A stretch of 39,673 bases of DNA, from IMG/VR virus record IMGVR_UViG_3300045988_165115; one strand, 5' to 3'. Below, piece after piece: positions 19,739 through 39,148 of this stretch; the first letter of the stretch is position 1, and every line of letters starts with the position of its first letter. The DNA comes from a virus (lineage: Duplodnaviria > Heunggongvirae > Uroviricota > Caudoviricetes). A program made the translations under genes and the position numbers. Below the pieces are notes generated by a model that saw nothing but the letters and a program-made list of their open reading frames with translations, made no database searches and was not told the DNA's origin.

Positions 19739-20032
19739 ATGAAAAAAATGTTGTTTTCTGCCGCTCTGGCAATGCTTATTACAGGATGTGCTCAACAGAC
19801 GTTTACTGTTGGAAACAAACCTACAGCAGTAACACCAAAGGAAACCATCACCCATCATTTCTTCGTTTCGGGAATTGGACAGCAGAAAACTGTTGATGCA
19901 GCCAAAATTTGTGGCGGCGCAGAAAATGTTGTTAAAACAGAAACCCAGCAAACATTCGTAAATGGATTGCTCGGTTTTATTACTTTAGGCATTTATACTC
20001 CGCTGGAAGCGCGTGTGTATTGCTCACAATAA
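19739..20032 (+). CDS. bor: Bor lipoprotein (serum-resistance factor)
   Basis: Translation MKKMLFSAALAMLITGCAQQTFTV... is nearly identical to lambda Bor as recalled; lipobox LITGC; AGGA Shine-Dalgarno 7 nt upstream; opposite to the lysis genes as in lambda. Confidence 0.9.
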   Translation: MKKMLFSAALAMLITGCAQQTFTVGNKPTAVTPKETITHHFFVSGIGQQKTVDAAKICGGAENVVKTETQQTFVNGLLGFITLGIYTPLEARVYCSQ

Positions 20033-20063: not shown

Positions 20064-20525
20064 CTATCTGCACTGCTCATTAATATACTTCTGGGTTCCT
20101 TCCAGTTGTTTTTGCATAGTGATCAGCCTCTCTCTGAGGGTGAAATAATCCCGTTCAGCGGTGTCTGCCAGTCGGGGGGAGGCTGCATTATCCACGCCGG
20201 AGGCGGTGGTGGCTTCACGCACTGACTGACAGACTGCTTTGATGTGCAACCGACGACGACCAGCGGCAACATCATCACGCAGAGCATCATTTTCAGCTTT
20301 CGCATCAGCTAACTCCTTCGTGTATTTTGCATCGAGCGCAGCAACATCACGCTGACGCATCTGTATGTCAGTAATTGCCGCGTTCGCCAGCGTCAGTTCT
20401 CTGGCATTTTTGTCGCGCTGGGCTTTGTAGGTAATGGCGTTATCACGGTAATGATTAACCGCCCATGACAGACAGACGATGATGCAGATAACCAGAGCGG
20501 AGATAATCGCGGTTAATCTGTTCAT
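20064..20525 (-). CDS. Rz: Rz i-spanin
   Basis: 153 aa with N-terminal transmembrane helix and coiled coil; overlaps the endolysin stop; Rz1 is embedded in it. Confidence 0.9.
20123..20305 (-). CDS. Rz1: Rz1 o-spanin lipoprotein, embedded in Rz in the +1 frame
   Basis: 60 aa with lipobox VVVGC and a proline-rich stretch (PPPPPAW...PPPDW), as in lambda Rz1. Confidence 0.85.
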
Positions 20526-20998
20526 ACCTCAATCTCTCTGACCATTCCGCCCGCTTCTTTGAATTTTGCAATCAGGCTGTCAGCCTTATGCTCGAACTGA
20601 CCATAACCAGCGCCCGGCAGTGAAGCCCAGATATTGCTGCAACGGTCGATAGCCTGACGAATATCACCGCGATCAATCATCGGTAAAGCGCCACGCTCTT
20701 TAATCTGTTGCAGTGCCACAGCGTCCTGGCTTTTCGGAGAGAAGTCTTTCAGGCCAAGCTGCTTGCGGTAAGCATCCCACCAGCGTGAAAGAAGTTGATA
20801 ACGGCCTGCAGCTGTTGATTTGAGTTTCGGGTTTAGCGTGACAAGTTTGCGAGGGTGATCGGAGTAATCAGTGAAGAGTTCTCCACCGACAATAACGTCA
20901 TAACCGTGGTTACGTGTCGGTTGTCGCCCGTTATCCGTTCCCTCTGACCATGCCACCATATCCAGGAAAGCTTTACGCTGGGAATTTAGTACCTGCAT
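20522..20998 (-). CDS. R: endolysin, lambda R-type lytic transglycosylase
   Basis: 158 aa; ...[35 protein letters not shown]... matches lambda R as recalled. Confidence 0.9.
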
Positions 20999-21001
20999 AA
21001 A

Positions 21002-21328
21002 TTACTCCTTAGAGCCACCAAACTTGTTACCGATTACTCTCATTGCAGCCCCACGAATAGCATCAACACCGATCAGCCCCACCCCACCACCAATGGCAAC
21101 AGATAGTGATTTAGGCCATCCGACATACTCAAGAGCGGATGCAAAAGTCAGCGTCAGAGCGCCACAGAGTAGAATTTCGAGTGTTTTTCGCTTCCAGCCG
21201 CCACCACCGCCAAAATAGGCAATACGTAAACCAGCCATAACAATCGACATAATCACTGCGCCCAGCGGTGTGTCTCCACGCCACCAGCTCTGGACCAACT
21301 CCAGCCATGTATTTGGGTTATGAGGCAT
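21002..21328 (-). CDS. S: holin, lambda S family (class I)
   Basis: 108 aa with hydrophobic helices and a charged C-terminus (GNKFGGSKE); sits directly upstream of the endolysin. Confidence 0.75.
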   Translation of the reverse strand: MPHNPNTWLELVQSWWRGDTPLGAVIMSIVMAGLRIAYFGGGGGWKRKTLEILLCGALTLTFASALEYVGWPKSLSVAIGGGVGLIGVDAIRGAAMRVIGNKFGGSKE

Positions 21329-21467
21329 TTGTAGTTATCTCTCACCTCGCTGATACAGCAGGTGCAAATTGAGGAAACATCATGTACCGCAAATCAGAAG
21401 CGGAAACGTCAAAGAAGCCGAGTCAATGGATAACTGCGGGATAGGCTAGGACCAAGGAATCCCCAGA

Positions 21468-21502
21468 CCCAGAAACGACAAAACCCGCTCGATGGCGGGT
21501 TT
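21468..21502 (-). terminator. rho-independent terminator-like hairpin, candidate tR' of the late operon
   Basis: Perfect 8-bp stem AAACCCGC/GCGGGTTT with a 6-nt loop; on the minus strand it is followed by TTTTGTCGTTTCT. Confidence 0.5.
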
Positions 21503-21619
21503 AAGCTGTGTGGCGAAGTGAGCACACTTAACAGATTACGATATTTTTTGCGTACGCGTTAGTGTTTTGATAGAATTTTCAGCCACATAAAAATTCATTC
21601 TTATAATTCGGGATATATA

Positions 21620-22795
21620 ATGGATATAACTTGTTTAGAATGTGGCAATGTTCTTGACGACCCAACTGTAGCTTGCGATAAATGCGGTGCCACGCCTCAT
21701 GTTGTAGTGCTGGGCAAACAATCGTACTTTCCTATTGGTGCTGTAACAGCAAATCTTGAAAAAAATGATTCAAGAGCATTTGATTATCGATTAGGTGAAG
21801 TTTGGGATCTAAAAAATGAAGTCACATCTGAATTCATAACCAGAATTGAGAAAAAATTTAGCCGAAAAAACAAATTTCATAACTTCCTAGACTCAGATCA
21901 CAACCCTTCATCCATTCCTACGATCCTAAAAAAATACATTAATAAAAATAATGAATTCATTGATTTATCTAGAGCTATAATAGAGAAGCTTAAACATAAT
22001 GCTAATAACGAATCGAGAGTTGCCCAACTTCAGGGGGGGAGCGTTGTTTTCATCCACTATAAGTCTACCGAACCAGAGGATTTGGGGAAACTTCTAATCG
22101 TAATGGTTGATAAACAAAGCGCCTATGACTTTGATTCGGATAAGTTGACCCCAACAAGATTAAATCCAATTAATACCGATGCCTTACGGCAGGCTGCGAT
22201 GTTCGATTTAACTTTATTCGAAGCCAGTTATCCAGAAAACAAGGGTGACTCATATGTACATTTCTTGCAAGGTAAATCTAAAAGCGATTTTTTCAAAGAC
22301 TCATTAGGTTGCCGACATGATTCGGACAATAAAAGAAGCATTCAGCAATTATTCAGTGCTATAGATATTTTTGCTAGTAAAAACTCACTCGGTCGTGTAC
22401 TGCGTGATACTATTGACAATGAAGTTAAATCCTTACTGGAAAAAAAATCAAAAGATAAACACGGAAATAAGTCCGTTAAGATAGAGGATATTTCAAAAAT
22501 AATTGACTCATGCCTGACTGATTCACACAAATGTAAGGGAACGTTTGTCGATTTTGTTAATCTTAATGGTTTCCAGATTGACCCTCAATTTGAACCAACT
22601 CCTAAAGCAGCTGAAAGCGCGCTTACAATTGAAGTGGCAGATAACGACAATAATTTTAAGTTGAAAATAATGCGTGGAGCTATTGGAGACGAAAAGTCAA
22701 ATAAGCCTGTAATTCTCACTGACAACAAATGCGAAATTGTGATAAAATTGAGTCAGGCAAATTATGATGAACTCAAAAGATATAGAGACAGCTAA
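21620..22795 (+). CDS. zinc-ribbon plus NdpA/YejK-like (NA37) nucleoid-associated-protein-like domain protein; first gene of the cargo operon
   Basis: N-terminal CxxC-x12-CxxC; central region (GGSVVFIHY...LNPINTD...DLTLFE...YVHFLQGKS...DFFKDSLGC) follows the YejK/NdpA motif pattern as recalled; AT-rich; opposite strand to the late genes. Confidence 0.55.
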   Translation: MDITCLECGNVLDDPTVACDKCGATPHVVVLGKQSYFPIGAVTANLEKNDSRAFDYRLGEVWDLKNEVTSEFITRIEKKFSRKNKFHNFLDSDHNPSSIPTILKKYINKNNEFIDLSRAIIEKLKHNANNESRVAQLQGGSVVFIHYKSTEPEDLGKLLIVMVDKQSAYDFDSDKLTPTRLNPINTDALRQAAMFDLTLFEASYPENKGDSYVHFLQGKSKSDFFKDSLGCRHDSDNKRSIQQLFSAIDIFASKNSLGRVLRDTIDNEVKSLLEKKSKDKHGNKSVKIEDISKIIDSCLTDSHKCKGTFVDFVNLNGFQIDPQFEPTPKAAESALTIEVADNDNNFKLKIMRGAIGDEKSNKPVILTDNKCEIVIKLSQANYDELKRYRDS

Positions 22796-22797
22796 TA

Positions 22798-24012
22798 ATG
22801 ACAATTGCTGATGACTTATCAAGATTAGCGCAGATTATTAACGGAGCCTCAAGCAGAGTTGAGGGCTACTACACTGTCATAAGTCTTGAAGAAAGCATTG
22901 TTATTGTAAATAGTTCTGAAATAATTAGACTGTTACAATCTATAGGTTATAAAAAGGCAACAACCTGCATCGAAAATAATGAAATTTGGCTAGATCGCCA
23001 AGCTTCATCTTGGGATGATGCTATAATTTATGAGAATGTTGAGTCTTTTTGGTCTAGAGTAAACACCCAAAACGCTCTTCCGAAAAATTATATCATCGGA
23101 ACGCCGTTAATACTCCCTACTTCTAAGAATGAAAGCATCGAAAAAATCCATATTTTCTTTATGTGGAAAGATATCCTTTCATTAATTTCTGATCATCATA
23201 ACAGTGACTGCTCTGTCTTATTTTTCACCAATGAAGACAAAAGTTATACAGTCGAACTCACGCATTTTTTACAATATAGCGAGATTAATCGCTTATCGAA
23301 CTCGTCTCTTAAATATGAAATTATAAAGGAGCTTCTCGACACAATAAAAATCAATGATTTACACAAAAGCGAGCGCAAGCTCGTTATACGCTCAGCCATA
23401 AACGAAGTATTTAAAGCAAATGGTACGTTCAATTTCTTTGACTTGCTTAACTCTACTGAACTCGTCAGGAAAAAATATGATGAACTATATGAGATTTACA
23501 CAAAGAGGTTTTCTGTAAATAAAATTCTTAACGAACTCGATGAGAAAAATCTTGAGTTCACGAGTAAAATTAACGAATTCATATCATCTAATCAGACAAA
23601 AGCATTGACTATTCCCGGTGCATTAATAGCAGCTGGTGGCTTAGTGAAGGCTAATGAAACAACCGAAGCAATATTGATTATCGCAGGACTTTGGATGATA
23701 AAAAAAGTCAATTACATTTCTATTGAGATATTCAATGAAACATTCGACAACTTACGTTCTCGAGTGGAGTCCGCTTTCGATAAGTATTTAAAGTTTGAAG
23801 AAAATAAAGAAATCAAAGATAATGCAGATAGTATTAAGAGTAGCATTACAGGTTTGATTGATAAAGCTAAAAAAAGGATGAGAACTGTTAAATATCTCGC
23901 ATCAGCCATGTTTTATGGAGGCCTTATTTACGTTGGATATAAACAGTTCCCAGTCTTTTTTGAAAAATCGGCAGTAAATCTATTTTATTTTTTATGCCAT
24001 ACTATAAGCTAA
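22798..24012 (+). CDS. hypothetical membrane-associated protein, second gene of the cargo operon
   Basis: 404 aa; ATG 2 nt after the upstream stop; hydrophobic segments LTIPGALIAAGGLV, AILIIAGLWMI and YLASAMFYGGLIYVGY; 3' end overlaps the Q 3' end by 21 nt. Confidence 0.55.
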   Translation: MTIADDLSRLAQIINGASSRVEGYYTVISLEESIVIVNSSEIIRLLQSIGYKKATTCIENNEIWLDRQASSWDDAIIYENVESFWSRVNTQNALPKNYIIGTPLILPTSKNESIEKIHIFFMWKDILSLISDHHNSDCSVLFFTNEDKSYTVELTHFLQYSEINRLSNSSLKYEIIKELLDTIKINDLHKSERKLVIRSAINEVFKANGTFNFFDLLNSTELVRKKYDELYEIYTKRFSVNKILNELDEKNLEFTSKINEFISSNQTKALTIPGALIAAGGLVKANETTEAILIIAGLWMIKKVNYISIEIFNETFDNLRSRVESAFDKYLKFEENKEIKDNADSIKSSITGLIDKAKKRMRTVKYLASAMFYGGLIYVGYKQFPVFFEKSAVNLFYFLCHTIS

Positions 24013-24363
24013 CATTGCTAAACAGCCATCAACAAACCCCATTGCAGTTTGCAGTTCCTTCCTAATTGTGCCATCAGAGCATTTTCTCTTCTTCGCAATA
24101 GTGCGTAATGAGATACCGATAACAAAGTGGGCGATGATGAGCTCATATTCCTCTGGTTTATACCTTCTCAACCGAGCCACACAACTGTCTATCATGATGC
24201 CTTCGTCATCATCACACTGAATCCGTGACTTTTTGCCATGAGGTAAAAGTCCCTTGAAACCAGCCGCTATCGGCTGCCAGTCCACTCCGCTATTGTCTGA
24301 AGCAGCCCAAGCTCCCCAACGATCCATTACTTCATACATATCACGCATCAACTTTCTCCACAA
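23992..24363 (-). CDS. late-gene antiterminator Q
   Basis: 123 aa; ...MDRWGAWAASDN...WQPIAAGFKGLLP...CDDDEGIMID...CSDGTIRKELQTA... matches the Q (QuuD-like) family pattern as recalled. Confidence 0.75.
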   Translation of the reverse strand: MWRKLMRDMYEVMDRWGAWAASDNSGVDWQPIAAGFKGLLPHGKKSRIQCDDDEGIMIDSCVARLRRYKPEEYELIIAHFVIGISLRTIAKKRKCSDGTIRKELQTAMGFVDGCLAMLAYSMA

Positions 24364-24365: not shown

Positions 24366-25361
24366 TCAGGCCAACACACCAATTGCCAGCGCACGATCGA
24401 TAAAACGAAATATCAACTCCAGCTGGGAGCCATACTTCTCTTCAAATGCCACGGTATCCGCATGCAGCTCGTCGTGATGCTTTCTGCACAAAGGCAGCAC
24501 AAAGAGATCATGCTCTTTTGTACCCATTCCCCCCTGACCGTGGCCTATCAGATGGTGGGGATCATCAGCAGGCTTTCCACAACATGCACACGGCTGCGTC
24601 TTAACCCAGCGCGTGTACTTTTCATTAACCCAGCGGCGACGTTTTGGGCGTAACATAAAAGACTCCGGCGACTCCGGATCCACTTTCAGCGCCAGCACCT
24701 TTTTAGCTTTATCCTGGATGATGCTGGTGGCAGGAACCGAAGGCACAAGGTCACTTTCCCGGGTGACAGATGGCACAACAGGCTTCGGTAATCTCAGTGC
24801 CTTACGGGCTGCACTTTCCGGTAAGGCATCCGCCAGATCATTACGAACCAGCCACCAGCACAGTTCCGGCATTGTCACAACGTGACTGTCATCAAAACCG
24901 AGATCCCGACGCACGACAGACAACACCCAGCGGGCACAGTTATCCGTTGCCATTGATTCCAGCCGTTCCGTGAACTGGTCACGCAGCTGGTTATCGCAGT
25001 GCCAGCACAGACGAATTGCTCCCGGAGCGTGCCGCATTGTGGTCATGTTCTCGCTGTGCCAGTCAGAATGAGGCCACTGACAGCCCTTTTCACGAAGTAA
25101 CCAGCTTTCAAGACATTCCACGCCACCAGCACGACGGATCACTGCCTCATTGCGGAACACGGTCCGAACGGCAGGATCATCCGCCAGCGGTTGTGATGCC
25201 GCCGGAACGGCACCACTGGCGAAAGATGAATAACGTTCCGGCTCTGGCTCCAGCAGGACACGCCCCTGCATAAACAGGGGCATCAGCTCTGAACCTGGCC
25301 TGAACAATACGATCCCCATACGCGGGGCAATTTCAGGCGTCAGTAGTGCTCTCACGGTCAC
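24366..25361 (-). CDS. DUF968/YdfU-like protein with a C-terminal HNH-like zinc-finger motif
   Basis: 331 aa; C-terminal CACCGKPADDPHHLIGHG...LCRKHHDELH; immediately upstream of Q. Confidence 0.55.
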   Translation of the reverse strand: MTVRALLTPEIAPRMGIVLFRPGSELMPLFMQGRVLLEPEPERYSSFASGAVPAASQPLADDPAVRTVFRNEAVIRRAGGVECLESWLLREKGCQWPHSDWHSENMTTMRHAPGAIRLCWHCDNQLRDQFTERLESMATDNCARWVLSVVRRDLGFDDSHVVTMPELCWWLVRNDLADALPESAARKALRLPKPVVPSVTRESDLVPSVPATSIIQDKAKKVLALKVDPESPESFMLRPKRRRWVNEKYTRWVKTQPCACCGKPADDPHHLIGHGQGGMGTKEHDLFVLPLCRKHHDELHADTVAFEEKYGSQLELIFRFIDRALAIGVLA

Positions 25362-25362
25362 C

Positions 25363-26160
25363 TCAATGAACGGTATCGAGTAGCTTTAACAGCTCAGGGA
25401 ATCGGGATTCGAAGAAATGCGGCTGCGTCTCGCGCGGATTTGCGGGACTGGTGATGTTCTTGCCGAACATGCAGCCTTTCGCCGTCAGCGACCAGAATTT
25501 TTTGATGTTGTTAATCGCGGTACGGCTGTATCGTTCGCGCTGCTCGACGATCCCCAGCTTCACCATCTGGTGATATGCCTGATTAGCTGTCAGGCGGATA
25601 CCATACTGCTTCAGCAGTGCACTCAGTGACAGCGTGGGGCGGCTTGAGCCATCAGGCGCGTCAGCAGGAGCATCAATGGCATAGCGCGGTGCCAGATTCG
25701 GTAAGCCAACAGCCTCCTGGAGTTTCTGACAGGCTCCAAGCACTGAAGAGTTAGACAGATTTAACTCCCGGCGCATAAAGTCCAGCAGAATCACGCCAGC
25801 CTGCATCTTGTCAGCAGCCTGTCCGGATAATTTTTCAGGTGCGCTGGTTACCATGTCGAAAGTACGGATCACCTTCAGATGGAATGACGGGCTGATCCAC
25901 ATTGCATAGGCATACACCAGTTCTTTGCAGACATACGTCCCCTGGTTATTTCCGCCACGAATAACGTTAACTGGCTCTATATTGACCGAGTTGCAAATCT
26001 GCAACTCGCTTATTAAACGTTCAGTTTGCTCATTGCGGAGCCAGAATGCAGGCTTATGCTTATCCAGAGAATCGGCAGCCCTGTGCAGATCGTTCAGGCT
26101 GTAACGACCATAAGCATCACGACGAACTTCAATACCATCAATGACCATCAGATTATTCAT
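25363..26160 (-). CDS. KilA-N domain protein
   Basis: N-terminal MVIDGIEVRRDAYGRYSLNDLHRA... fits the KilA-N pattern; nin-region position. Confidence 0.5.
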   Translation of the reverse strand: MNNLMVIDGIEVRRDAYGRYSLNDLHRAADSLDKHKPAFWLRNEQTERLISELQICNSVNIEPVNVIRGGNNQGTYVCKELVYAYAMWISPSFHLKVIRTFDMVTSAPEKLSGQAADKMQAGVILLDFMRRELNLSNSSVLGACQKLQEAVGLPNLAPRYAIDAPADAPDGSSRPTLSLSALLKQYGIRLTANQAYHQMVKLGIVEQRERYSRTAINNIKKFWSLTAKGCMFGKNITSPANPRETQPHFFESRFPELLKLLDTVH

Positions 26161-26179
26161 ACTTCGTTTCTCCTCTTAA

Positions 26180-26569
26180 TCAGGCGGCTGCACCCGCCGG
26201 TTTCTCGTACTTACTGATAGTGATCTCAACCTTCCCTTCCGGGATAACCGGTCCCCACTCCACCAGCATTCTTTTCACCTGACTGTCGTCTTCCCACACA
26301 CCCGCGTGGGTCAGGGCGTCAAACAGCGCCTTGTTATAGTTGTCCAGATCGCGGATCCGGTTATCCGGAGGAAACAACACGATCTCCACTGAAGCAGGTG
26401 CCGACGTTGGTTTCGGCAGACGACGTAACTGCTCAACTATTGCTGCGCACGCCGCGCTCTGAAATTTTCGCCCCGCCTCGCTTATCAGGCTCTTACCAGC
26501 AAATGCCCCTTTGTTGGGGTGTCGCCAGTACGTGTTCACACTGGGCGGGAAAGGAAGGATCAACTTCAT
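26180..26569 (-). CDS. rusA: RusA-family Holliday junction resolvase
   Basis: 129 aa; motifs PPSVNTYWRH and RDLDNYNKALFDALTHAGVWEDDSQV match the RusA family. Confidence 0.85.
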   Translation of the reverse strand: MKLILPFPPSVNTYWRHPNKGAFAGKSLISEAGRKFQSAACAAIVEQLRRLPKPTSAPASVEIVLFPPDNRIRDLDNYNKALFDALTHAGVWEDDSQVKRMLVEWGPVIPEGKVEITISKYEKPAGAAA

Positions 26570-26892
26570 ACTTTCAGGCCCCTCTCATGTAACCAGTGGG
26601 CTGCACGCAACCTAGCGTTCTCCTCAGCGGCAAGCAGTGCGCGGATGATACCGACCGCTTCGCTGTCGTCGTCCTTCACTGCGGTATGAAGCGTGATCCC
26701 CCGGGCCACGCCACGCTTTATCGTGATGACGCCTTTTTTCTCCAGTGCGCGAAGATGCTCCACCGCTGCATTCACTGAACGGTATCCCAGCATGGTTGCC
26801 ACCTCCTGATTGGTTGGCGGGAAGCCACGTTCTTTCTGGTAAGAAATCAGCATATCCAGCACCTGCTGCTGGCATTGAGTTAACGTCGTCAT
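26566..26892 (-). CDS. LexA N-terminal DNA-binding-domain-like protein lacking the S24 peptidase domain
   Basis: LTQCQQQVLDMLISYQKERGFPPTNQEVATMLGYRSVNAAVEHLRALEKKGVI closely parallels the LexA winged-helix domain; only 108 aa, no Ser/Lys peptidase region. Confidence 0.65.
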   Translation of the reverse strand: MTTLTQCQQQVLDMLISYQKERGFPPTNQEVATMLGYRSVNAAVEHLRALEKKGVITIKRGVARGITLHTAVKDDDSEAVGIIRALLAAEENARLRAAHWLHERGLKV

Positions 26893-27542
26893 GCCGCCAT
26901 CTCCCTGACCAGTTTTTCCGCCTGCTGGCGAACCTGTGCCAGAAAGGCCTCACCACATGCCTCAAGTTCATCGCGCCCGATGTAGCTGATTGCCGGTCCC
27001 TTCCAGGTCTTGTCGAAAACAGCAATAGCACCAGCGAAGAAAGCGCCTGTCGGCACCTGCTTCTCATCTTTCGGGATAAACCAGGCAGGCAGTTCAAAAC
27101 CAATACGCCCGCGAATAAAAGCAATATGGTCTGCATCTTCCGGCCACCACACTTCGCTGGTGGCAGCTTTGATCAGGAAAACATAGCGCCCGCCTTTATC
27201 ACGCATGGCACCGGCATGTTTCATGATGTAACGCATGCCGGTGATGTATTGCCCCTCATGCTGACTGGCGCGACTGTATGGGGGATTACCAAAGGCAGCA
27301 CCTTTAAGCTCCGCAAGACGTTCTGACCAGTCATGCGCCAGCGCGTTGTCTTCCGCCGTGTAATACGCGGTACATTTGGCGTTATCACCGTCAGTAAACA
27401 GATCCAGGACAAACGGGCCAAACAGGGTGTTAATTCCCCAGAAAATGTTATCCGGCGTGCGCCACTGATCGCCCACTTCCTTCAGTTCATGGGCTGGTTT
27501 GTTCCGCAGTTCCACCAGCGCCCGGCAATATTTATTACTCAT
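26889..27542 (-). CDS. phage DNA N6-adenine methyltransferase (Dam-like); start set to the internal MSNKYCR
   Basis: NPPY catalytic motif (GNPPYS); TAATG stop/start overlap with the upstream gene at 27542. Confidence 0.75.
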   Translation of the reverse strand: MSNKYCRALVELRNKPAHELKEVGDQWRTPDNIFWGINTLFGPFVLDLFTDGDNAKCTAYYTAEDNALAHDWSERLAELKGAAFGNPPYSRASQHEGQYITGMRYIMKHAGAMRDKGGRYVFLIKAATSEVWWPEDADHIAFIRGRIGFELPAWFIPKDEKQVPTGAFFAGAIAVFDKTWKGPAISYIGRDELEACGEAFLAQVRQQAEKLVREMAA

Positions 27543-28036
27543 TAAGCCCCCACGTAATTCCCTGACAGATACCACTCTTCACCCGATGCAGCGCGCTTGC
27601 TGCTTTTCCGTAAGCACCGCTCACGACGTGCCAGAAAATTGTTTCGTTCTGGCTGGGAGTGGCTTTCACGGAATGCCGCCATCCACACGGTTGCAGCACG
27701 ACGGTATAAGCCCCTTGACTCCAGTTCTTCAGCCTGGCGGGTCAGGCATAAAATCACCCGGGGATCGTTAGTGCCGACATAGAAATTGCGCACAGGTCTG
27801 GTTTCACGAACTGGTTGTGGTTCCGGCTCCTGCGCTCTCTCAGTCAGGCGCGGGAAATGTCTGCGTGTATCTCCTTCACAACGGTGAGCCACACGCCCAC
27901 TCTGACGTAACTTGCTTGCTGACTGCAGAACGCGCTGCCGTGAGTAACCTGCAAAAGCATCCGCAATGTCTCCGGAAGTACAGCCCGGATGGGCTTCAAT
28001 GAATTTCTGAACGTCATTCAAAAGACTCATGCTCAC
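27542..28036 (-). CDS. hypothetical regulator, winged-helix-like N-terminus and PerC-like C-terminal segment (tentative)
   Basis: 164 aa; C-terminal LESRGLYRRAATVWMAAF resembles the PerC family signature as recalled; overlaps the replication gene stop. Confidence 0.35.
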   Translation of the reverse strand: MSMSLLNDVQKFIEAHPGCTSGDIADAFAGYSRQRVLQSASKLRQSGRVAHRCEGDTRRHFPRLTERAQEPEPQPVRETRPVRNFYVGTNDPRVILCLTRQAEELESRGLYRRAATVWMAAFRESHSQPERNNFLARRERCLRKSSKRAASGEEWYLSGNYVGA

Positions 28037-28974
28037 CCCCTGAATCCTGCCGGGATCTGGCTGTAGTCCACATTGTCGTAACTGGCTTTGAAGTACGGGT
28101 CTTCGCGTTTTTCTGTGTACGTGCTGACGGACGGCGATAAGCGCAGGGAAAGCTCATCCCATTTTTCCCGCAGCTTCGACGGGCTGAGCACGTTACGGCA
28201 CCAGAACGGATCGCGGCTGACGCGGCTGTACATCTCGCAGATTTGTTTGTGAGTACGACCATCCTGCACACACATCAGGCGAATTTCGTTTGCCCAGGCT
28301 GTCCAGTTCGGTTCTTTGGGACGAACCACCTCGCCGTCACATTCGGCAGCCTGCTCGTACAGGGCGATGATTTTTTTCCAGAGCCACTGTGCGCAGGTCA
28401 AATCATCCTGCGTCCCCCACTGGCGCTTTTTAGGGCTGAATACAACCGCATCAGGATGGCGAGTTAAAAAATCCTGTTCAGCCGTCTGCGTGTCCGGTTG
28501 CGAAGCGTCCGGACGAGAAGTTTTTTTATCTGACGGATCATGTTTTGATTTTACTGACGGATCCCCGCCAGATTCTGACGGGTGAAAACCCGCTTTTTTG
28601 CCAGATTTCGACGCATCAAATTTTGACGGGTCAGATTTTGATGCGTCAGATTTTGACGGGTCAGAATCTGACAGTTGAGAAAATGCCGCTGCCTGAAGCT
28701 TCGCAACGTTAAGCTGATAAACATTCGACGCATTGCGGTTACCCTGGCGACGCGCCTTACGCGTTAACCAGCCTTCTGCTTCCAGCCGTGCGATAGCCGT
28801 TCTGACGGTACTCATCCCCGCGCCAATCTGACGGGCAATGGTTTTAATTGATGGCCAGCACACACCTTCGTCATTACTGAAATCAGCCAGGCGGGCCATA
28901 ATTGCCACGCTGGATAACTTCATGCCTGATGCAGCGCAACCATCCCATACATAGCCGGTTAATTTAGTGCTCAT
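28033..28974 (-). CDS. replication initiator / replisome organiser (lambda O-like) with internal iterons
   Basis: 313 aa; winged-helix N-terminus, a central SDPSKSDASKSDPSKFDASKS repeat encoded by the DNA iterons, and a conserved C-terminal domain. Confidence 0.7.
   Translation of the reverse strand: MSTKLTGYVWDGCAASGMKLSSVAIMARLADFSNDEGVCWPSIKTIARQIGAGMSTVRTAIARLEAEGWLTRKARRQGNRNASNVYQLNVAKLQAAAFSQLSDSDPSKSDASKSDPSKFDASKSGKKAGFHPSESGGDPSVKSKHDPSDKKTSRPDASQPDTQTAEQDFLTRHPDAVVFSPKKRQWGTQDDLTCAQWLWKKIIALYEQAAECDGEVVRPKEPNWTAWANEIRLMCVQDGRTHKQICEMYSRVSRDPFWCRNVLSPSKLREKWDELSLRLSPSVSTYTEKREDPYFKASYDNVDYSQIPAGFRG
28528..28678. repeat. iteron array, putative replication origin inside the initiator gene
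   Basis: At least six direct repeats of about 15 bp, consensus CAGATTTTGACGGG, at 28569, 28601, 28616, 28631, 28646 and 28661, the last four with a 15-bp period. Confidence 0.7.
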
Positions 28975-28983
28975 GACCGACCT

Positions 28984-29322
28984 CTATTTCCCTGAATTTA
29001 CGACGAAACTGTTCGAGCGGACTGAAGCATTCATGCTCATAACCTTCGCGGAGGTAGATAACCCGTTGTGTTTCCGGCTCCCAACGAATGACTCTGACGG
29101 GCACTCCGTAGTGATCTTTGAACCAGCGGTTAACTTGTCGCAAAGGACTGTCTCCTTCTGCCGGTTGAAATCACCCACAGCCCACTCTGCAAAGCTGTGG
29201 GTTACAATTTCCCTGTCACCTGGTACATTCACTGCATAGCAATATTCCACCTTCGCTTTTCCACCCGGTACCGGAAGCGCAATCAGTTGCGAGCGACGGT
29301 AGTGTGTTGTTAAACTGTTCAT
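28984..29322 (-). CDS. hypothetical early-operon protein, positional equivalent of e14 ymfM
   Basis: 112 aa between the YmfL-like gene and the replication initiator. Confidence 0.4.
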
Positions 29323-29876
29323 GCGTTAGTTTCTCCACAACCAGAAGCAATCGACGCCACGACGCCCGGAGCTGCACACTCGCGGGCGTCATTACTTTCT
29401 GAAATGCAAAAAATTTTGTAGACAAGTGCTGCATGCTCCTGCAGCTTCGAAATTGAGAGATACAGCTCGTCGTTAATTGCTGTCTTCTCATGCGGTTCCA
29501 CTACACCGTCTTCGATTGCTGAACGAATCTGTTTTGAATAACTGCCGATCTGTTCAATGACTTCCAGCAGACGCTGGTTAATATCGGCGTTGTCCACATC
29601 CTCGACGTCAGGAAGAGACACAAAGACGCCATTTGCAGACTGCGCCACAGCATCAGCAATGAAGTGAGTGCCACCAGCACGCTGTAAAACCATTGCCCAT
29701 CCCAGCGGGAAAATCTGATCGCCATCTGCACGAAGGCGGTTGAATAAAGCGTTTTCTGTTACATCGAGCCAGTCAGCCGCTTCAGCGTAACCACCCGGCA
29801 ACGCCGCGATAGTTTTTCTGACAGCTTTCACGTACCACTCAGGCTGTTTTTCTATTTTCCAGTGATGCTTACCCAC
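29319..29876 (-). CDS. hypothetical early-operon protein, positional equivalent of e14 ymfL / lambda cII
   Basis: 185 aa directly downstream of cro with overlapping stop/start. Confidence 0.45.
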
Positions 29877-30129
29877 GGTTCACCTCCTGTTCCTGTGGTT
29901 TAAACCCATTCTGATTTTGGCTAGATTGAAAACGTGCCGGATAAAGAATCTGCATTTCGCTGACTTCACCCTTAAAAAAATTGGCTAAACGTTCTGCAAG
30001 CTCGATAGATGGAATCTGCTCCAGCCTCTCAATACGACTCAACGTCGCTGGATTGACTTGAACACCCGCAGCAACATGCTGCAAAGTGAAACCATGCGCC
30101 TTACGCACATTTCGTAATGGTGATTGCAT
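29869..30129 (-). CDS. Cro-like HTH (XRE-family) regulator
   Basis: 86 aa; helix-turn-helix LQHVAAGVQVNPATLSRIE; divergent from the cI-like repressor across a 97-bp operator region. Confidence 0.8.
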   Translation of the reverse strand: MQSPLRNVRKAHGFTLQHVAAGVQVNPATLSRIERLEQIPSIELAERLANFFKGEVSEMQILYPARFQSSQNQNGFKPQEQEVNRG

Positions 30130-30140
30130 ATACCCTCCAA

Positions 30141-30226
30141 ATATTGCGCGTTATGCATGTTATTTCACGCAATTATTTTGCGCAAGTTGATTTGCTTATC
30201 ACGCAATAAAGAAATGTAATAAACGC
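30141..30226. promoter_or_regulatory. cI/cro divergent operator-promoter region with repeated TTGCG/CGCAA half-sites
   Basis: Half-sites at 30144 (TTGCGCG), 30166 (CACGCAA), 30178 (TTGCGCAA) and 30200 (CACGCAA); 15-bp palindrome CGCAATTATTTTGCG at 30168-30182. Confidence 0.6.
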
Positions 30227-30919
30227 ATGAACATAGGAAACCGAGTCAGACAACTTCGCCAAGCGAAGAACATGAAAATCGCCGATCTCGCTGAAGCAAT
30301 AGGAGTAGATGCGGCGAACATCTCGCGCTTAGAAACGGGTAAGCAAAAACAATTTACCGAACAAACACTGAGTAATATTGCCAAGAGCTTAGGTGTTGAT
30401 ATTGCTGATCTCTTTACCTCTGCCCTCAAAAGTAATACTGTATATAAAAACAGTAATAATGAGGATGTTGCGCAGGTGAAGGATGTGTTCCGTATTGAAA
30501 TGCTGGATATCAGTGCCAGTGCGGGAAATGGCCTTATCCAGGGCGGTGATGTCATTGATGTGATTCATGCCATCGAATACAGAACTGATAATGCTGTATC
30601 AATGTTCGGCGGACGACCAGCCAATCACATCAAAGTTATCAACGTTCGTGGGGACAGTATGTGTCCAACCATTGAGCCAGGAGATCTCATCTTCGTTGAT
30701 GTCAGCATCAATCAGTTTGATGGTGATGGTATATATGTCTTTGGTTTTGATGACAAAATATACGTTAAAAGACTTCAAATGATTCCTGACAAACTGCTGG
30801 TGATTTCTGATAACCAGATTTACCGTGAATGGGGAATTACTAGCGAAAACGAACACCGATTCATGGTCTTTGGAAAGGTCTTAATCAGTCAGTCGCAAAC
30901 CCTTAAGAGACATAATTAA
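30227..30919 (+). CDS. CI-like prophage repressor (HTH_XRE plus S24 LexA-like autopeptidase)
   Basis: N-terminal HTH (NMKIADLAEAIGVDAANISRLETGK) and C-terminal S24 motifs (GDSMCPTIEPGDLIFVD ... KRL). Confidence 0.9.
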   Translation: MNIGNRVRQLRQAKNMKIADLAEAIGVDAANISRLETGKQKQFTEQTLSNIAKSLGVDIADLFTSALKSNTVYKNSNNEDVAQVKDVFRIEMLDISASAGNGLIQGGDVIDVIHAIEYRTDNAVSMFGGRPANHIKVINVRGDSMCPTIEPGDLIFVDVSINQFDGDGIYVFGFDDKIYVKRLQMIPDKLLVISDNQIYREWGITSENEHRFMVFGKVLISQSQTLKRHN

Positions 30920-30938
30920 CCTCAATATCCCATCCATC

Positions 30939-30963
30939 GGCCACCGAAAGGTGGCTTTTTATT
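30939..30963 (+). terminator. rho-independent terminator downstream of the repressor gene
   Basis: GCCACC-GAAA-GGTGGC hairpin followed by TTTTTATT. Confidence 0.75.
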
Positions 30964-31196
30964 ACCCATCATTTTGCATATATCGCAATATTACTTGCAT
31001 ATCTCGCAATTTAATTTTATCTTTTGTTCCAGACCAACTACAGGATTACAACAAAATCTGGTTGCAAAACGGTGCATGTGTCGTAAGCGGTCAGTAAATG
31101 TCAAAAACGAACAGGCAGGACGCCCACGAAGTAGCAGCCTGGGGCATATGAAGTCCAGGATGATTCGTTAGCGGATGATTTCAGTGGAGAGAATAG

Positions 31197-31505
31197 ATGA
31201 ATGAGCAGGATTTGAAGCATGTGATCGCATTGTTGCTGGAAGACGCTAAACGTTTGCAGCAGATAGAGCCAAATGCAGGCACTGAGGCCCGTATTTTGTT
31301 AGCAAAACAGGCATTAAAGACTTGCGAGGCGCAAGACCCTGATCGAACCAAGTTCATGAATTTCATGGCTAACACGATCACCCCACTGCCATGCAATGGA
31401 GAGAGGGTGAGCCGTGTTTATCACGACACAATGGTTAAGGCATTAAGAATCGAGCTTGATGGGCTTAGGCGTAAGATCGTGATGAACAAAATCGTTGCCA
31501 ACTAA
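31197..31505 (+). CDS. hypothetical protein, positional equivalent of e14 ymfJ
   Basis: 102 aa; GGAGA Shine-Dalgarno 6 nt upstream of the ATG. Confidence 0.5.
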   Translation: MNEQDLKHVIALLLEDAKRLQQIEPNAGTEARILLAKQALKTCEAQDPDRTKFMNFMANTITPLPCNGERVSRVYHDTMVKALRIELDGLRRKIVMNKIVAN

Positions 31506-31784
31506 GGAAGCAGACGGAAGTAAGCATGCGCTTTGTTCAAATTTGCAGACAAATATATTTGCGTCAACACCAGCACTGTTAGCAATGGAAAAAGTTTGAT
31601 CAAGGATTTGTTGGCAGTTCATTGTGCTTTTGAGGATATATCCCTCTGGAATCAGTCTGCAGCAGCTATCGTCAGACTCTTTGATTGTTTTCTGGTACAG
31701 AAAGTTAAGCATTAATTCTTCAAATTTTTTGGTCTGTTCGGCTGTTGCTTCAAACAGACGAACGTGAACATAAAACTGGTTCAT
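31443..31784 (-). CDS. hypothetical protein, positional equivalent of e14 ymfI; start set to the internal MNQFYV
   Basis: AAGGAAA Shine-Dalgarno upstream of the internal ATG; convergent 3' overlap with the 31197 gene. Confidence 0.45.
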   Translation of the reverse strand: MNQFYVHVRLFEATAEQTKKFEELMLNFLYQKTIKESDDSCCRLIPEGYILKSTMNCQQILDQTFSIANSAGVDANIFVCKFEQSACLLPSASLVGNDFVHHDLTPKPIKLDS

Positions 31785-32063
31785 TAGGTTTCCTTGCTGG
31801 CTGTGTGAGAACTCCAGCATACCACCGAGCCTGAAGTGGTGAAAAGACAGGCAATAGTTTCATTGCTGTGTGTAGTCCTGGCGGTACCAGTTTGTACCCT
31901 TGCTTCCGGCTGGTACCGCTCTTTTTACAAAACAGAGAAGAGCATCACCGGACGACGGGCTCATAACCCAATCCATCCGGGCGGCTGCCACCGCAGGTGT
32001 TCTTCTCTGTTTTGTGGAGAAACCAACCGACCTTGCAGGGTCGATATGATGAGGAGCAGCAAA

Positions 32064-32426
32064 ATGGCTAGCGAACGCGGTACTGATGTGCAGGCATTTA
32101 TCGGGGAGCTGGACGGCGGCGTATTTGAAACCAAAATCGGCGCAGTTCTCAGTGAAGTCGCTTCCGGTGTGATGAACACGAAAACCAAAGGTAAGGTCTC
32201 ACTCAACCTGGAAATCGAACCATTTGATGAGAACCGTGTGAAAATCAAACACAAACTCTCATATGTTCGCCCGACTAACCGCGGGAAAATTTCCGAAGAA
32301 GACACCACCGAAACGCCGATGTATGTCAATCGCGGTGGGCGCCTGACTATTCTGCAGGAAGACCAGGGACAATTACTGACTCTTGCCGGTGAGCCTGACG
32401 GAAAACTCCGCGCAGCAGGTCATTAA
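32064..32426 (+). CDS. YfdP-like prophage protein; start set to the internal MASERG
   Basis: GAGGAG Shine-Dalgarno 7 nt upstream of the ATG at 32064; the longer ORF from 31836 has a poor N-terminus. Confidence 0.5.
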   Translation: MASERGTDVQAFIGELDGGVFETKIGAVLSEVASGVMNTKTKGKVSLNLEIEPFDENRVKIKHKLSYVRPTNRGKISEEDTTETPMYVNRGGRLTILQEDQGQLLTLAGEPDGKLRAAGH

Positions 32427-32491
32427 TATCGTTCTTAATTAACTGATTATTTACCTCATCACTGAATATCTTTATATAGTGAGGACTTATT

Positions 32492-33316
32492 ATGTCTCAG
32501 AACTTAGACGCAACCGCAATTAATCAAATCCATGCCCTTATTTCTGCTCAGGGTGTTAATGAAATTATCAGTAAGATTGGTGCCGACGCAGTGGCATTAC
32601 CTGAAAATTTCCGCATTCATGATCTGGAAAAATTTAATTTAAATCGCTTCCGTTTCCGTGGCGCGCTTTCCACTGCCTGCATCGATGACTTTACCCGTTA
32701 TTCTAAAGATCTTGCAGATGAAGGCACCCGCTGCTTTATCGATGCCGATAATATGCGTGCCGTCAGTGTTCTTAACCTGGGTACTATTGATGAACCAGGT
32801 CACGCAGATAATACCGCCACTCTCAAACTGAAAAAGACAGCACCGTTCTCTGCACTGTTGTCTGTTAACGGCGAGCGTAACTCCCAGAAGTCACTGGCAG
32901 AATGGATTGAAGACTGGGCCGACTACCTTGTGGGCTTTGATGCTAATGGTGACGCCATTCAGGCAACCAAAGCGGCTGCGGCGATCCGTAAAATCACAAT
33001 TGAAGCGAACCAGACTGCTGATTTTGAAGACAATGACTTCAGCGGCAAACGCTCCCTGATGGAGTCTGTCGAAGCGAAGACCAAAGACATTATGCCAGTG
33101 GCATTTGAATTTAAATGCGTTCCGTTTGAAGGCCTGAAAGAACGTCCGTTTAAATTACGCCTCAGCATTATCACTGGCGATCGTCCTGTACTGGTACTAC
33201 GCATTATTCAGCTGGAAGCAGTGCAGGAGGAAATGGCTAACGAATTTCGTGATCTGCTTGTTGATAAATTCAAAGACAGCAAAGTAGAAACCTTTATTGG
33301 TACTTTCACCGCCTGA
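32492..33316 (+). CDS. YfdQ-like (DUF2303-like) prophage protein
   Basis: 274 aa; same size and neighbourhood as CPS-53 yfdQ as recalled. Confidence 0.5.
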
Positions 33317-33444
33317 TTTCATTACTGCAAATGCCCCTGCGGGGGCATTTATGGAAACGTAATTGACTCAATAATCGCCTGATGGCGAGGGTTTTCTTTA
33401 ACCAAAATTCAGCGCGGTGCAGCGCATATAACGTGGAGAACAAA

Positions 33445-33981
33445 ATGTCATTTATTAAAACTTTTTCTGGGAAGCATTTTTATTATGACAAGATAAATAA
33501 AGACGACATCGTTATTAACGATATCGCGGTTTCCCTTTCAAATATCTGCCGCTTTGCAGGACACCTTTCACACTTCTATAGCGTCGCCCAACATGCGGTG
33601 CTTTGCAGCATGCTGGTACCGCAGGAATTTGCTTTTGAAGCATTAATGCATGATGCAACAGAAGCGTATTGCCAGGACATCCCCGCAGCACTGAAACGCC
33701 TTCTTCCTGACTATAAACGGATGGAAGAAAAAATAGACGCCGTAATCCGTGAGAAATACGGGTTACCTCAGGCTATGAGCACGCCCGTGAAATATGCCGA
33801 TCTCATCATGCTGGCAACCGAACGCCGCGATCTCGGGCTTGATGATGGCTCTTTCTGGCCAGTATTGGAAGGTATCCCGGCAACAGAGATGTTCGAAGTT
33901 GTTCCTCTGGCTCCTGGCCATGCCTACGAGATATTTATGGAACGTTTTAAAGAGCTGCATAAGATACATAAGCAATCCTGA
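33445..33981 (+). CDS. HD-domain hydrolase, YfdR-like 5'-deoxynucleotidase
   Basis: HD motifs (SVAQHA ... LMHDATEAYCQD); GGAGAA Shine-Dalgarno upstream of the ATG at 33445. Confidence 0.6.
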   Translation: MSFIKTFSGKHFYYDKINKDDIVINDIAVSLSNICRFAGHLSHFYSVAQHAVLCSMLVPQEFAFEALMHDATEAYCQDIPAALKRLLPDYKRMEEKIDAVIREKYGLPQAMSTPVKYADLIMLATERRDLGLDDGSFWPVLEGIPATEMFEVVPLAPGHAYEIFMERFKELHKIHKQS

Positions 33982-34021
33982 CAGCGAAATTAACTAGTGA
34001 AATAGTTTTGTAGCAAAAGAA

Positions 34022-34282
34022 ATGAGGTTATCAAAAATGCTTCAAATGCTGACACTTGAGGAATGGGCTGCGGAAAAATTTAGGAGTAATCCTCCAAGTG
34101 TGTCCACATTGCGTCGTTATGCTAAGCAGAATTTATTTTGTCCACCAGCAATGAAACAAGGTCGACTCTGGCGAGTACGTGAGGACGCAGAGTTAGTTGG
34201 GGAATTAGTTACTCCAGTAATCAAGAAAAGTGATTCTATTATTCTGCAAAGGATTTTAAGCAATGGCAGCCAGACCACGTAA
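34022..34282 (+). CDS. xis: excisionase (lambda Xis-like); start uncertain, alternative ATGs at 34037 and 34046
   Basis: LTLEEWAAEKFRSNPPSVSTLRRYAKQNLFCPPAMKQGRLW parallels lambda Xis; overlaps the int start. Confidence 0.7.
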   Translation: MRLSKMLQMLTLEEWAAEKFRSNPPSVSTLRRYAKQNLFCPPAMKQGRLWRVREDAELVGELVTPVIKKSDSIILQRILSNGSQTT

Positions 34283-35390: not shown

Positions 35391-35600
35391 GCGTTTAAGT
35401 TTCTCAATCCCACATTAATTATCTCATCACACATGTAACAGGCCAAACAGACTGCTCTGAGCGACGAACCGTTGTTGACCAGTAACGCCATAGAGTATAT
35501 TCAGTAAGTGTTCCAATGTATATAAGAAATGCGCTGTGTATATTTTTAATTCAAAATAGTTTGAAGCACAATCATGAAACAGATTCTTATGAATACAAAA

Positions 35601-37186: not shown

Positions 37187-37214
37187 AATCCATCTGAATA
37201 TATACAGATGGATT
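37187..37214. repeat. perfect 10-bp inverted repeat in the intergenic gap between the DarT-like and macro genes
   Basis: AATCCATCTG - 8-nt loop - CAGATGGATT. Confidence 0.5.
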
Positions 37215-39112: not shown

Positions 39113-39148
39113 ACTAACAAAAAACAACGGGAGCGTTACACTCCCGTT
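39113..39148 (-). terminator. rho-independent terminator downstream of the icd 3' end
   Basis: AACGGGAG-loop-CTCCCGTT hairpin followed on the minus strand by TTGTTTTTTGTT. Confidence 0.7.

Follow-up and report, generated by a model that had tools for sequence, protein, structure and literature searches.

The cassette between Q and the holin gene

The window analysed here is a stretch of 39,673 nucleotides of prophage DNA, and the genes that flank the two-gene cassette described below were annotated from RefSeq record NZ_CP006834.2, which is 100% identical to the window. A cassette of two plus-strand genes separates the antiterminator Q gene of this E. coli prophage from its holin gene, in the orientation opposite to the late genes, which lie on the minus strand (Table 1). 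The stop codon of the first gene (TAA, 22793-22795) and the ATG of the second are separated by 2 nt. The GC content of the cassette (21569-24012) is 0.346, compared to 0.540 in positions 1-21000 and 0.449 in positions 24401-39673 of the window. At this composition about 7.6% stop codons are expected, and reading frames as long as these (391 and 404 codons) would stay open by chance with a probability of about 1e-14. In addition, both proteins have conserved homologues. The initial annotation had described two coupled, AT-rich genes in this position and orientation, and the open reading frames, the 2-nt gap and the GC content of 34.6% all agree with that description.

Table 1. Features of the cassette and its flanks, with positions in the window
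Feature	Position	Strand	Basis
Endolysin gene	20522-20998	-	RefSeq annotation
Rz and Rz1 genes	flank	-	RefSeq annotation
Lambda-family holin gene, first of the lysis cassette, on the opposite side of the cassette from Q	21002..21328	-	WP_001120496.1, ORF table
Phage backbone between cassette and holin start	21329..21568	-	about 92% identical to phage SfII
Intrinsic-terminator-like hairpin within the backbone, possible late-operon tR'	21502..21481	-	putative terminator
Upstream region with probable native DS-1 promoter and RBS	21569..21619	+	cassette-specific DNA, consensus promoter scan
Promoter-like hexamers TTGATA and AAAAAT	21567-21572 and 21589-21594	+	consensus promoter scan
Perfect TATAAT and GGGA	21602-21607 and 21610-21613	+	sequence read
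DS-1A, 391 aa, Zn ribbon and NA37/YejK-like domain	21620..22795	+	NF053868, identity to WP_000355468.1
DS-1A Zn-ribbon motif, residues 5-22	21632..21685	+	cysteine positions
DS-1A NA37 (YejK-like) domain, residues 42-382	21743..22765	+	Pfam, HHpred of the DefensePredictor authors, Foldseek
DS-1B, 404 aa, without Pfam family	22798..24012	+	NF053869, identity to WP_000150292.1
DS-1B soluble N-terminal part, residues 1-268	22798..23601	+	model secondary structure, alignment
DS-1B hydrophobic and coiled-coil C-terminal module	23596..23946	+	family-averaged hydropathy, model helices
Antiterminator Q family gene, right cassette border, TAA at 23992-23994	23992..24348	-	WP_001205470.1, ORF table

At the left border, homology to the SfII backbone stops at about position 21568 and cassette-specific DNA begins at about 21569; the start originally placed at 21540 thus lies about 30 nt inside the phage backbone. 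At the right border, the 3′ ends of Q and the second gene overlap tail to tail by 21 nt. The DNA directly upstream of the first gene carries promoter-like elements and probably functions as the promoter of the operon. A scan of the minus strand from 21503 to 21620 revealed no consensus Q-dependent late promoter, and neither tRNA genes nor Rfam families occur in the whole window.

Identity with DS-1 and features of the two proteins

By its sequence, the operon at 21620-24012 was shown to be the DS-1 anti-phage system, carried as prophage cargo. The first protein matched the NCBIfam model NF053868 (DS1_1_antiphage) with 451.4 bits (cut-off 330, E 2.1e-135, profile positions 3-369 of 369) and the second matched NF053869 (DS1_2_antiphage) with 375.3 bits (cut-off 315, E 2.7e-112, profile positions 1-337 of 337). 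Both models are curated equivalogs, and both cut-offs were passed. The first protein is identical to DS-1A (WP_000355468.1; Table S8, PMC13092281) in 391 of 391 residues, and the second to DS-1B (WP_000150292.1) in 398 of the 399 residues printed. The sole difference is a serine instead of an alanine at position 131, and serine is also the family consensus at this position, which lies inside an LSDH motif in the homologue alignment. In NZ_CP006834.2 the second protein is annotated as WP_000150293.1. The transcription unit of 2393 bp, with A upstream of B, corresponds in length and order to the published DS-1 unit (220602-222994). Compared to the published operon, the one described here therefore differs only by A131S, and its context here is an SfII/e14-like prophage, where it lies between Q and the holin gene.

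DS-1 (DS-1A/DS-1B, working name D390) was reported in the DefensePredictor study (bioRxiv January 2025; Science 2026, doi 10.1126/science.adv7924), which describes the YejK domain as newly validated in defence and contains no analysis of the genomic context or mechanism of DS-1. The operon had thus received its name, after cloning and testing, in 2025-2026; since it is both published and labelled by the NCBI annotation pipeline, the initial call was right about a defence system but is no discovery. The initial annotation had called the pair undescribed and without a named family, which did not hold; no match was seen at that stage because knowledge of the PADLOC v2.0.0 (2023) era lacks DS-1. 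A PADLOC search had been proposed as a check, and PADLOC v2.0.0 returned 0 families at E <= 1 for either protein. As this release predates DS-1, we do not count the result as evidence of novelty. Our additions are the borders of the cassette, the evidence for a swap site, the pairing of A and B out to Pseudomonas and a confident model of DS-1B with conserved hydrophobic helices. In the initial annotation a real defence system had been recognised from raw sequence alone.

The published phenotype was obtained with a low-copy plasmid carrying DS-1 with its native promoter and upstream region in E. coli MG1655, and is marked 'replicated TRUE' (doi 10.1126/science.adv7924). In that screen the -log10 EOP was 7.6 for Bas1, 2.7 for Bas26, 1.7 for Bas3, 1.7 for T3, 1.0 for T5 and 0.9 for T7, corresponding to a plating drop of about 10^7 for Bas1, about 500-fold for Bas26 and 8- to 50-fold for T3, Bas3, T5 and T7. 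SECphi27 formed small plaques on DS-1 cells, and the screen has no T4 entry (doi 10.1126/science.adv7924). Protection was published for the near-identical A131 construct and is predicted for the S131 allele found here. The anti-phage function proposed initially for a DNA binder with a hydrophobic-helix partner is thus borne out by DS-1A and DS-1B, whose cloned genes protect MG1655 against several phages.

The initial annotation had assigned a YejK/NdpA-like (NA37) domain to the first protein, and this was confirmed. Pfam PF04245 matched residues 64-376 of DS-1A with E 1.2e-23, and the HHpred analysis of the DefensePredictor authors placed NA37 over residues 42-382 with a probability of 1. The YejK structure 9be2 matched DS-1A by sequence (E 1.2e-9) and was the sole Foldseek match of its AlphaFold model (pLDDT 85.3; E 2.5e-14). 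E. coli YejK/NdpA (PDB 9be2) and DS-1A therefore have the NA37 fold in common, but their identity is only about 19%, and with 81.4 bits DS-1A stays below the cut-off of 341 of the YejK equivalog NF001557. We therefore rejected DS-1A as a YejK orthologue. Unlike YejK/NdpA, DS-1A has an extra N-terminal zinc ribbon, is prophage-encoded and always occurs with its DS-1B partner. The four cysteines of this ribbon (C5, C8, C19 and C22) are present as noted initially, but with a spacing of CxxC-x10-CxxC instead of x12. The Pfam match to Zn_Ribbon_1 is below threshold (E 0.07), and the DefensePredictor authors obtained a NinF-like zinc ribbon at 86% with HHpred. The cysteines are kept in enterobacterial and Pseudoalteromonas homologues and missing from those of Pseudomonas, and this part of the model is of low confidence (pLDDT 53-67).

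DS-1B matched phrog_5023 with E 5e-158, and its AlphaFold model has a pLDDT of 84.9. In the model the N-terminal part consists of an alpha/beta domain (residues 1-165) followed by helices (169-268). The motif with the highest conservation in the family alignment closes this region: KKYDELYEIYTKRFSVNK.LNELDEK.LEFTSKINE. Residues 1-268 have a net charge of -8 and a pI of 5.3; the charge of the same region ranges from -2 to -18 in 40 of 41 homologues and is 0 in the remaining one. In the C-terminal module, a hairpin of two helices (about 267-285 and 289-308) holds the invariant KALTIPGALIA.GA motif and is followed by an amphipathic hairpin (309-362) and a third hydrophobic helix (363-383). Family-averaged hydropathy has its maxima at 265-311 and 361-388, and the helices of the model span 271-283, 288-331 and 337-383. 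The C-terminal hydrophobic helices noted initially are thus present, and their pattern is conserved in the family, but they are only moderately hydrophobic: by Kyte-Doolittle (19 residues) one borderline stretch exceeds 1.4, in windows from residue 291, with a maximum of 1.56. Lysine and arginine residues cluster at the predicted cytoplasmic sides, and some relatives have an SH3 domain at the C-terminus, in support of a predicted extracytoplasmic location of this end. A sequence search of DS-1B against the PDB gave nothing at E <= 10, and Pfam searches of DS-1B and its homologues found no toxSAS or other enzymatic domain. Pfam matches of DS-1B and 41 homologues to SWIB, CdvA, FlgN and gpD were sub-threshold noise without a consistent family, and a match to SLATT_fungal (E 0.003) in one distant relative was rejected, as no other member agrees.

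Distribution and the cargo gap

Of the complete E. coli genomes, about 2% contain the cassette, at a single fixed prophage position and with at least 99% identity. No divergent DS-1 alleles were detected in E. coli by distant blastn (107 of 107 records were at least 99% identical), and a tblastn search with DS-1B against 50,697 phage records gave no match. In the megablast search against phage records the 240-bp backbone alone matched, in SfII and SfIV. The locus offers a natural context for studying the mechanism of DS-1.

In sister prophages the Q-holin gap carries other defence candidates, such as the PADLOC candidate PDC-M53A/B in phage SfII. Like DS-1, this cargo lies at the same insertion point, opposite to the late genes and next to the same 240-bp holin-side backbone, whereas its proteins are unrelated to those of DS-1. 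This fits a swap site for interchangeable defence cargo, in line with the cargo hotspot that had been suggested from the sequence.

In all distant loci sampled, namely four from Pseudomonas and one each from Pseudoteredinibacter, Pseudoalteromonas and a metagenome contig, the A homologue is directly followed by a B homologue (hhalign probability 100). Moreover, many A matches and B matches fell on contigs of equal length. By this shared inheritance, A and B are functionally linked. It had been proposed to look for the pair in other defence islands, and away from lysis cassettes it was found adjoining an integrase gene or AbiEii and AAA_21 genes. In P. aeruginosa the pair adjoins a Pf prophage.

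Proposed mode of action and comparison with known systems

In our view the locus is best explained as DS-1 cargo in an SfII/e14-like prophage, acting through a PANGU-like abortive mechanism, and we give this explanation a probability of roughly 0.6. The mechanism is modelled on the architecture of the operon and on published work on type II PANGU. In the lysogen the promoter of the operon itself would drive expression, in convergence with Q, and DS-1A, as a YejK-like NA37 protein, would rest on the host nucleoid. Degradation or remodelling of the host DNA by a phage would free DS-1A, which could then bind the mildly acidic N-terminal domain that DS-1B would expose to the cytoplasm. DS-1B is presumably anchored in the inner membrane by the conserved hydrophobic hairpin and the third hydrophobic helix. 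Engaged DS-1B would damage membrane function, so that the infected cell no longer supports phage growth. The phages restricted by DS-1 (T5-like, T7-like and T1-like) are known to degrade host DNA. With the odds against it, the placement of the cassette between Q and the late-operon leader, where it converges on Q and overlaps its end by 21 nt, might also be regulatory: early transcription through Q at induction could then silence DS-1 by antisense collision. If true, the prophage would in this way avoid triggering its own abortive-infection system.

For type II PANGU, a model has been put forward in which a YejK-like nucleoid-associated protein (NAP) quits the nucleoid upon degradation of the host DNA and engages a membrane effector, with an abortive outcome (bioRxiv 10.64898/2026.04.06.716658, April 2026). 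In the same preprint, both genes of the E. coli operon, encoding a NAP and a TM protein, were needed and neither was toxic alone; growth curves appeared abortive and cultures at high MOI were arrested; the NAP-GFP fusion departed from the nucleoid upon T4 infection; the NAP and the acidic N-terminal domain of its partner interacted with a KD of 19 nM; and T4 escaped by inactivating the host-DNA endonuclease denA (bioRxiv 10.64898/2026.04.06.716658). The abortive-infection logic that the initial annotation had read into the pair is thus reported for a system of the same architecture, and would apply to DS-1 by analogy.

YejK of E. coli is a DNA-binding protein that modulates both gyrase and topoisomerase IV. 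An NA37 protein could therefore disturb the topology of phage DNA, and DS-1 might act by direct exclusion, with DS-1A binding the incoming phage DNA and DS-1B tethering or positioning it at the membrane near the entry site. The phage DNA would then be sequestered, or its replication or topology blocked, and the cell would survive. Many superinfection-exclusion functions are prophage-encoded as DS-1 is, the combination of a DNA binder with a membrane partner would suit this role, and the complete block of Bas1 (no plaques, 10^7.6-fold) is what would be expected of an early exclusion. However, the smaller plaques with modest EOP drops of T3, T7, Bas3 and SECphi27 are a better fit to leaky abortive infection, and by analogy the arrest of high-MOI cultures in type II PANGU, where the NAP quits the nucleoid and no membrane foci were seen, would also argue against exclusion. 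We regard exclusion as unlikely.

In a toxin-antitoxin arrangement, DS-1B would be a membrane toxin restrained by DS-1A, and loss or titration of DS-1A caused by the phage would free the toxin. This would suit the tight coupling of the two genes, which were co-inherited everywhere sampled, and membrane-active toxins are common effectors of abortive infection. Here the gene order is that of a sensor followed by an effector, however, and Pfam, NCBIfam and PADLOC revealed no likeness to known toxins or antitoxins. The type II PANGU genes, moreover, are both required and non-toxic alone, and the authors see the NAP as an activator of its partner and not as a neutraliser; by analogy, we judge such an arrangement for DS-1 to be quite improbable. 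Very improbable is a role that is not primarily in defence, with the NA37 protein as a regulator or silencer of its own mobile element (cf. NdpA2, ICE PAPI-1), DS-1B as a membrane protein that assists lysis of the prophage or lysogenic conversion and the plasmid-borne protection as a side effect. The pair converges on Q and separates it from the lysis genes, in P. aeruginosa it lies beside a Pf prophage, and an NA37 paralogue of a Pseudomonas ICE is a transcriptional regulator of transfer (PMC8565334), all of which would agree with such a role. However, the operon by itself protects a prophage-free MG1655 background up to 10^7-fold, the pair also occurs away from lysis cassettes, and PDC-M53A/B in the gap of sister prophages fits interchangeable defence cargo.

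A PANGU-like abortive mechanism thus remains our preferred explanation, and DS-1 can be compared with both types of PANGU. In type I PANGU (Pag1A NAP and GRel toxSAS Pag1B), like in DS-1, a YejK-like NAP is the proposed sensor of host-genome degradation. Its effector, however, is an alarmone synthetase that is soluble and carries a DNA-mimic domain at its C-terminus, whereas DS-1B has no such enzymatic domain, and the case for the N-terminal half of DS-1B as a DNA mimic is weak, as it is only mildly acidic. Type II PANGU (Pag2A NAP and Pag2B TM effector), like DS-1, is bicistronic with the YejK-like NAP encoded first, the comparison being one of architecture. As predicted for DS-1B, its partner protein joins a soluble N-terminal part of net acidic charge to hydrophobic helices at the C-terminus, and, like DS-1, the system is present in E. 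coli and widely distributed. The two systems differ in that T4 is blocked by PANGU-Ecu while T1 and T5 are not, whereas DS-1 affects T5, Bas26, T3, T7, Bas1 and Bas3 and has no T4 entry. This disagreement in host range speaks against a PANGU-like mechanism of DS-1, as do the mild acidity and the borderline hydropathy of DS-1B. Furthermore, the PANGU preprint does not mention a zinc ribbon, whereas DS-1A has the motif. Because the range of DS-1 covers T5-, T7- and T1-like phages with T4 absent, and many members add a zinc ribbon, we tentatively propose, as an idea with the odds against it, that DS-1 forms a branch of NAP-based immunity with a trigger unlike the T4 EndoII-dependent one of PANGU, and that its fixed placement may be regulatory too.

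Identity of the two-gene cassette

The AT-rich two-gene operon between Q and the holin gene had been put forward in the initial annotation as an undescribed candidate anti-phage system. The anti-phage reading was good, as the pair is the validated system DS-1, but it is not undescribed: both proteins are named in NCBIfam and are identical to, or one residue off, the validated DS-1 proteins. The cassette is thus a system already known, named and validated. Its identity was decided with the NCBIfam release 20 profiles. The first protein, DS-1A, scored 451 bits against NF053868 (DS1_1_antiphage, "nucleoid-associated anti-phage protein", equivalog; cut-off 330) and the second, DS-1B, scored 375 bits against NF053869 (DS1_2_antiphage; cut-off 315). 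In Pfam, NA37 was found over residues 64-376 of DS-1A (E 1.2e-23) and DS-1B was without any match; PADLOC v2.0.0 gave no match for either protein.

The Laub laboratory's DefensePredictor study is the source of DS-1 (bioRxiv January 2025; Science 2026; PMC13092281). In its supplementary tables the system (working name D390) is a 2393-bp transcription unit with both protein sequences printed, DS-1A being WP_000355468.1 (391 aa; NA37 at residues 42-382 by HHpred) and DS-1B WP_000150292.1 (404 aa) (PMC13092281). DS-1A of the window is identical to the published protein at 391/391 residues, and DS-1B has a single difference, S131 for A131. Serine is the family consensus at this position and the window allele is WP_000150293.1. 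The published −log10 EOP values (Table S7) are 7.6 for Bas1, 2.7 for Bas26, 1.7 for Bas3, 1.7 for T3, 1.0 for T5 and 0.9 for T7; SECphi27 formed small plaques on DS-1, and the DS-1 result is flagged as replicated (PMC13092281). The main text presents the YejK nucleoid-associated domain as newly validated in defence and does not give a mechanism for DS-1 (PMC13092281).

The Q-holin gap as a cargo site

ORFs, G+C content and RefSeq annotation confirmed two coupled plus-strand genes in AT-rich DNA, flanked by Q and the holin gene on the minus strand. The DS-1A stop codon (TAA, 22793-22795) and the DS-1B ATG (22798) are spaced by 2 nt. The cassette-specific DNA (21569-24012) has a G+C content of 34.6%, compared to 54.0% in the left and 44.9% in the right flank; with such a base composition, a frame staying open for ~400 codons would arise by chance with a probability near 1e-14. 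The cassette starts at ~21569 and not, as annotated before, at 21540, and the zinc ribbon of DS-1A is CxxC-x10-CxxC (C5, C8, C19, C22) instead of having an x12 spacing. Immediately downstream of the lysis cassette lies a second AT-rich plus-strand moron, the iss/bor serum-survival lipoprotein gene (19739-20029; 'increased serum survival lipoprotein Iss' in RefSeq), a virulence-associated cargo of this APEC-type prophage.

Features of the cassette, its neighbours, alternative cargo and DS-1B (window coordinates, except residues and compared loci L, which are numbered locally)
Feature	Location	Strand	Basis
DS-1A ORF, 391 aa	21620..22795	+	
DS-1B ORF, 404 aa	22798..24012	+	
Lambda-family holin	21002-21328	-	annotation of 100% identical RefSeq record, E. 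coli APEC O2-211
Antiterminator Q family gene	23992-24348	-	annotation of same record
Endolysin, Rz, Rz1 (further neighbours)		-	annotation of same record
PDC-M53A/B-like two-gene cassette	L001 (phage SfII) 2786-4400 (SfII_50/SfII_49); L007 (E. coli 04-00955) 5288-6899		
Three-gene cargo: TIGR04255 family protein first, then 114- and 204-aa hypotheticals	L008 5401-7128; L009 5401-7128		
DS-1B N-terminal alpha/beta domain	residues 1-165		model
DS-1B helical region, its end the family's most conserved motif	residues 169-268		model and alignment
DS-1B hydrophobic hairpin with invariant KALTIPGALIA.GA motif	residues about 267-308		model
DS-1B amphipathic helical hairpin	residues 309-362		model
DS-1B third hydrophobic helix	residues 363-383		model

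DS-1B and Q converge, and their 3′ ends share 21 nt (23992-24012), which leaves no space for the late promoter next to Q and means that the two transcription units must collide. On a more speculative reading, transcription from Q would silence the operon when its own prophage is induced. We found no plus-strand terminator-like site after DS-1B. The 240 bp beside the holin gene (21329-21568) are phage backbone common to Shigella phages SfII and SfIV and contain a minus-strand terminator-like hairpin (21502..21481); the late-operon leader is therefore likely to be found on the cassette's holin side. No sigma-70-like late promoter was found on the minus strand in 21503-21620.

The proposed cargo hotspot was supported, because different cassettes in the same orientation fill this gap in SfII and sister E. 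coli prophages. One is a gene pair encoding 340-aa and 194-aa proteins, unannotated in their records, which match the PADLOC candidates PDC-M53A (E 2e-32) and PDC-M53B (E 3e-54). For the three-gene TIGR04255 set, 0/3 proteins had a PADLOC match. The cargo of the gap alternates between defence and defence-candidate modules.

Distribution and pairing of the two genes

The DS-1 cassette is present in 106 of 5,426 complete E. coli genomes (107 records), every copy being at least 99% identical; no diverged alleles were found among these genomes, and there was no match among sequenced phage records. An antiterminator Q family gene adjoins the cassette in all listed records of the query extending into Q. 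In the newest RefSeq records (match H55) the genes already carry anti-phage names. One of the 107 copies is plasmid-borne, and in one E. coli genome (NZ_OZ547033.1, match H39) DS-1A is interrupted by IS1, a natural knockout.

DS-1A relatives form 110 clusters (90% identity) from Enterobacterales to Pseudomonas, Vibrio, Oceanimonas and Vogesella; enterobacterial and Pseudoalteromonas members have the zinc ribbon and Pseudomonas members lack it. For DS-1B, a word-indexed search gave 69 clusters and an exhaustive profile search 780 clusters (50% identity, E <= 1e-3), nearly all of 380-450 aa, so that the full-length architecture is conserved. In every distant locus examined, the NA37 gene is directly followed by a DS-1B homologue (hhalign probability 100), usually overlapping, and the two therefore constitute an obligate two-gene module. 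These loci come from two Pseudomonas species (one adjoining a Pf filamentous prophage), Pseudoalteromonas (integrase adjoining), one metagenome contig and Pseudoteredinibacter. The P. aeruginosa pair (L004-L006, 6001-8422) consists of an NA37 protein without zinc ribbon and a 425-aa DS-1B homologue, with a 17-nt gene overlap, and directly adjoins a Pf-like filamentous prophage (Zot, DUF2523). In Pseudoteredinibacter the pair (L010, 6617-9584) adjoins genes for an AAA_21/AAA_15 ATPase and for AbiEii, a defence-island-like neighbourhood.

Predicted structures and comparison with PANGU

The NA37/YejK assignment of the first protein was borne out by Pfam and by structure: the DS-1A model (pLDDT 85.3) had E. 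coli YejK as its sole match among solved structures (Foldseek E 2.5e-14). DS-1A falls below the YejK equivalog cut-off (81 versus 341 bits), which marks it as a paralogue distinct from the housekeeping protein. In the DS-1B model (pLDDT 84.9, pTM 0.62), the annotated C-terminal hydrophobic helices are present, but are only moderately hydrophobic. In some distant relatives (P0197, 615 aa; P0059, 527 aa) the last hydrophobic helix is followed by a bacterial SH3 domain, which suggests that the C-terminus lies outside the cytoplasm and may touch the cell wall.

In PANGU defence, phage-induced breakdown of the host genome is sensed by a YejK-like nucleoid-associated protein (NAP); in type II the NAP is paired with a transmembrane protein, which binds it through an acidic N-terminal "DNA-mimic" domain with a KD of 19 nM (bioRxiv 10.64898/2026.04.06.716658, April 2026). 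In the E. coli type II system both genes are needed and either alone is non-toxic, the behaviour of cultures is that of abortive infection, NAP-GFP moves off the nucleoid upon T4 infection, and T4 escapes by mutation of denA (bioRxiv 10.64898/2026.04.06.716658). Because DS-1 shares this architecture, a type II PANGU-like mechanism is the best-supported reading, to which we assign a probability of about 0.6. By analogy, DS-1A would sense phage-induced host genome degradation and bind the N-terminal part of DS-1B, and the outcome would be abortive infection. As the evidence stands, three other readings are each less likely: that the system excludes phage DNA directly at the membrane, that the genes form a toxin-antitoxin pair, or that they regulate the prophage in the manner of NdpA2.

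The likeness of DS-1 to type II PANGU is one of architecture, a YejK-like NAP with a hydrophobic-helix partner, and not of sequence comparison. Their host ranges differ: T5 is affected by DS-1, for which T4 has no entry, while PANGU-Ecu, the E. coli type II example, restricts T4 and leaves T1 and T5 unblocked.
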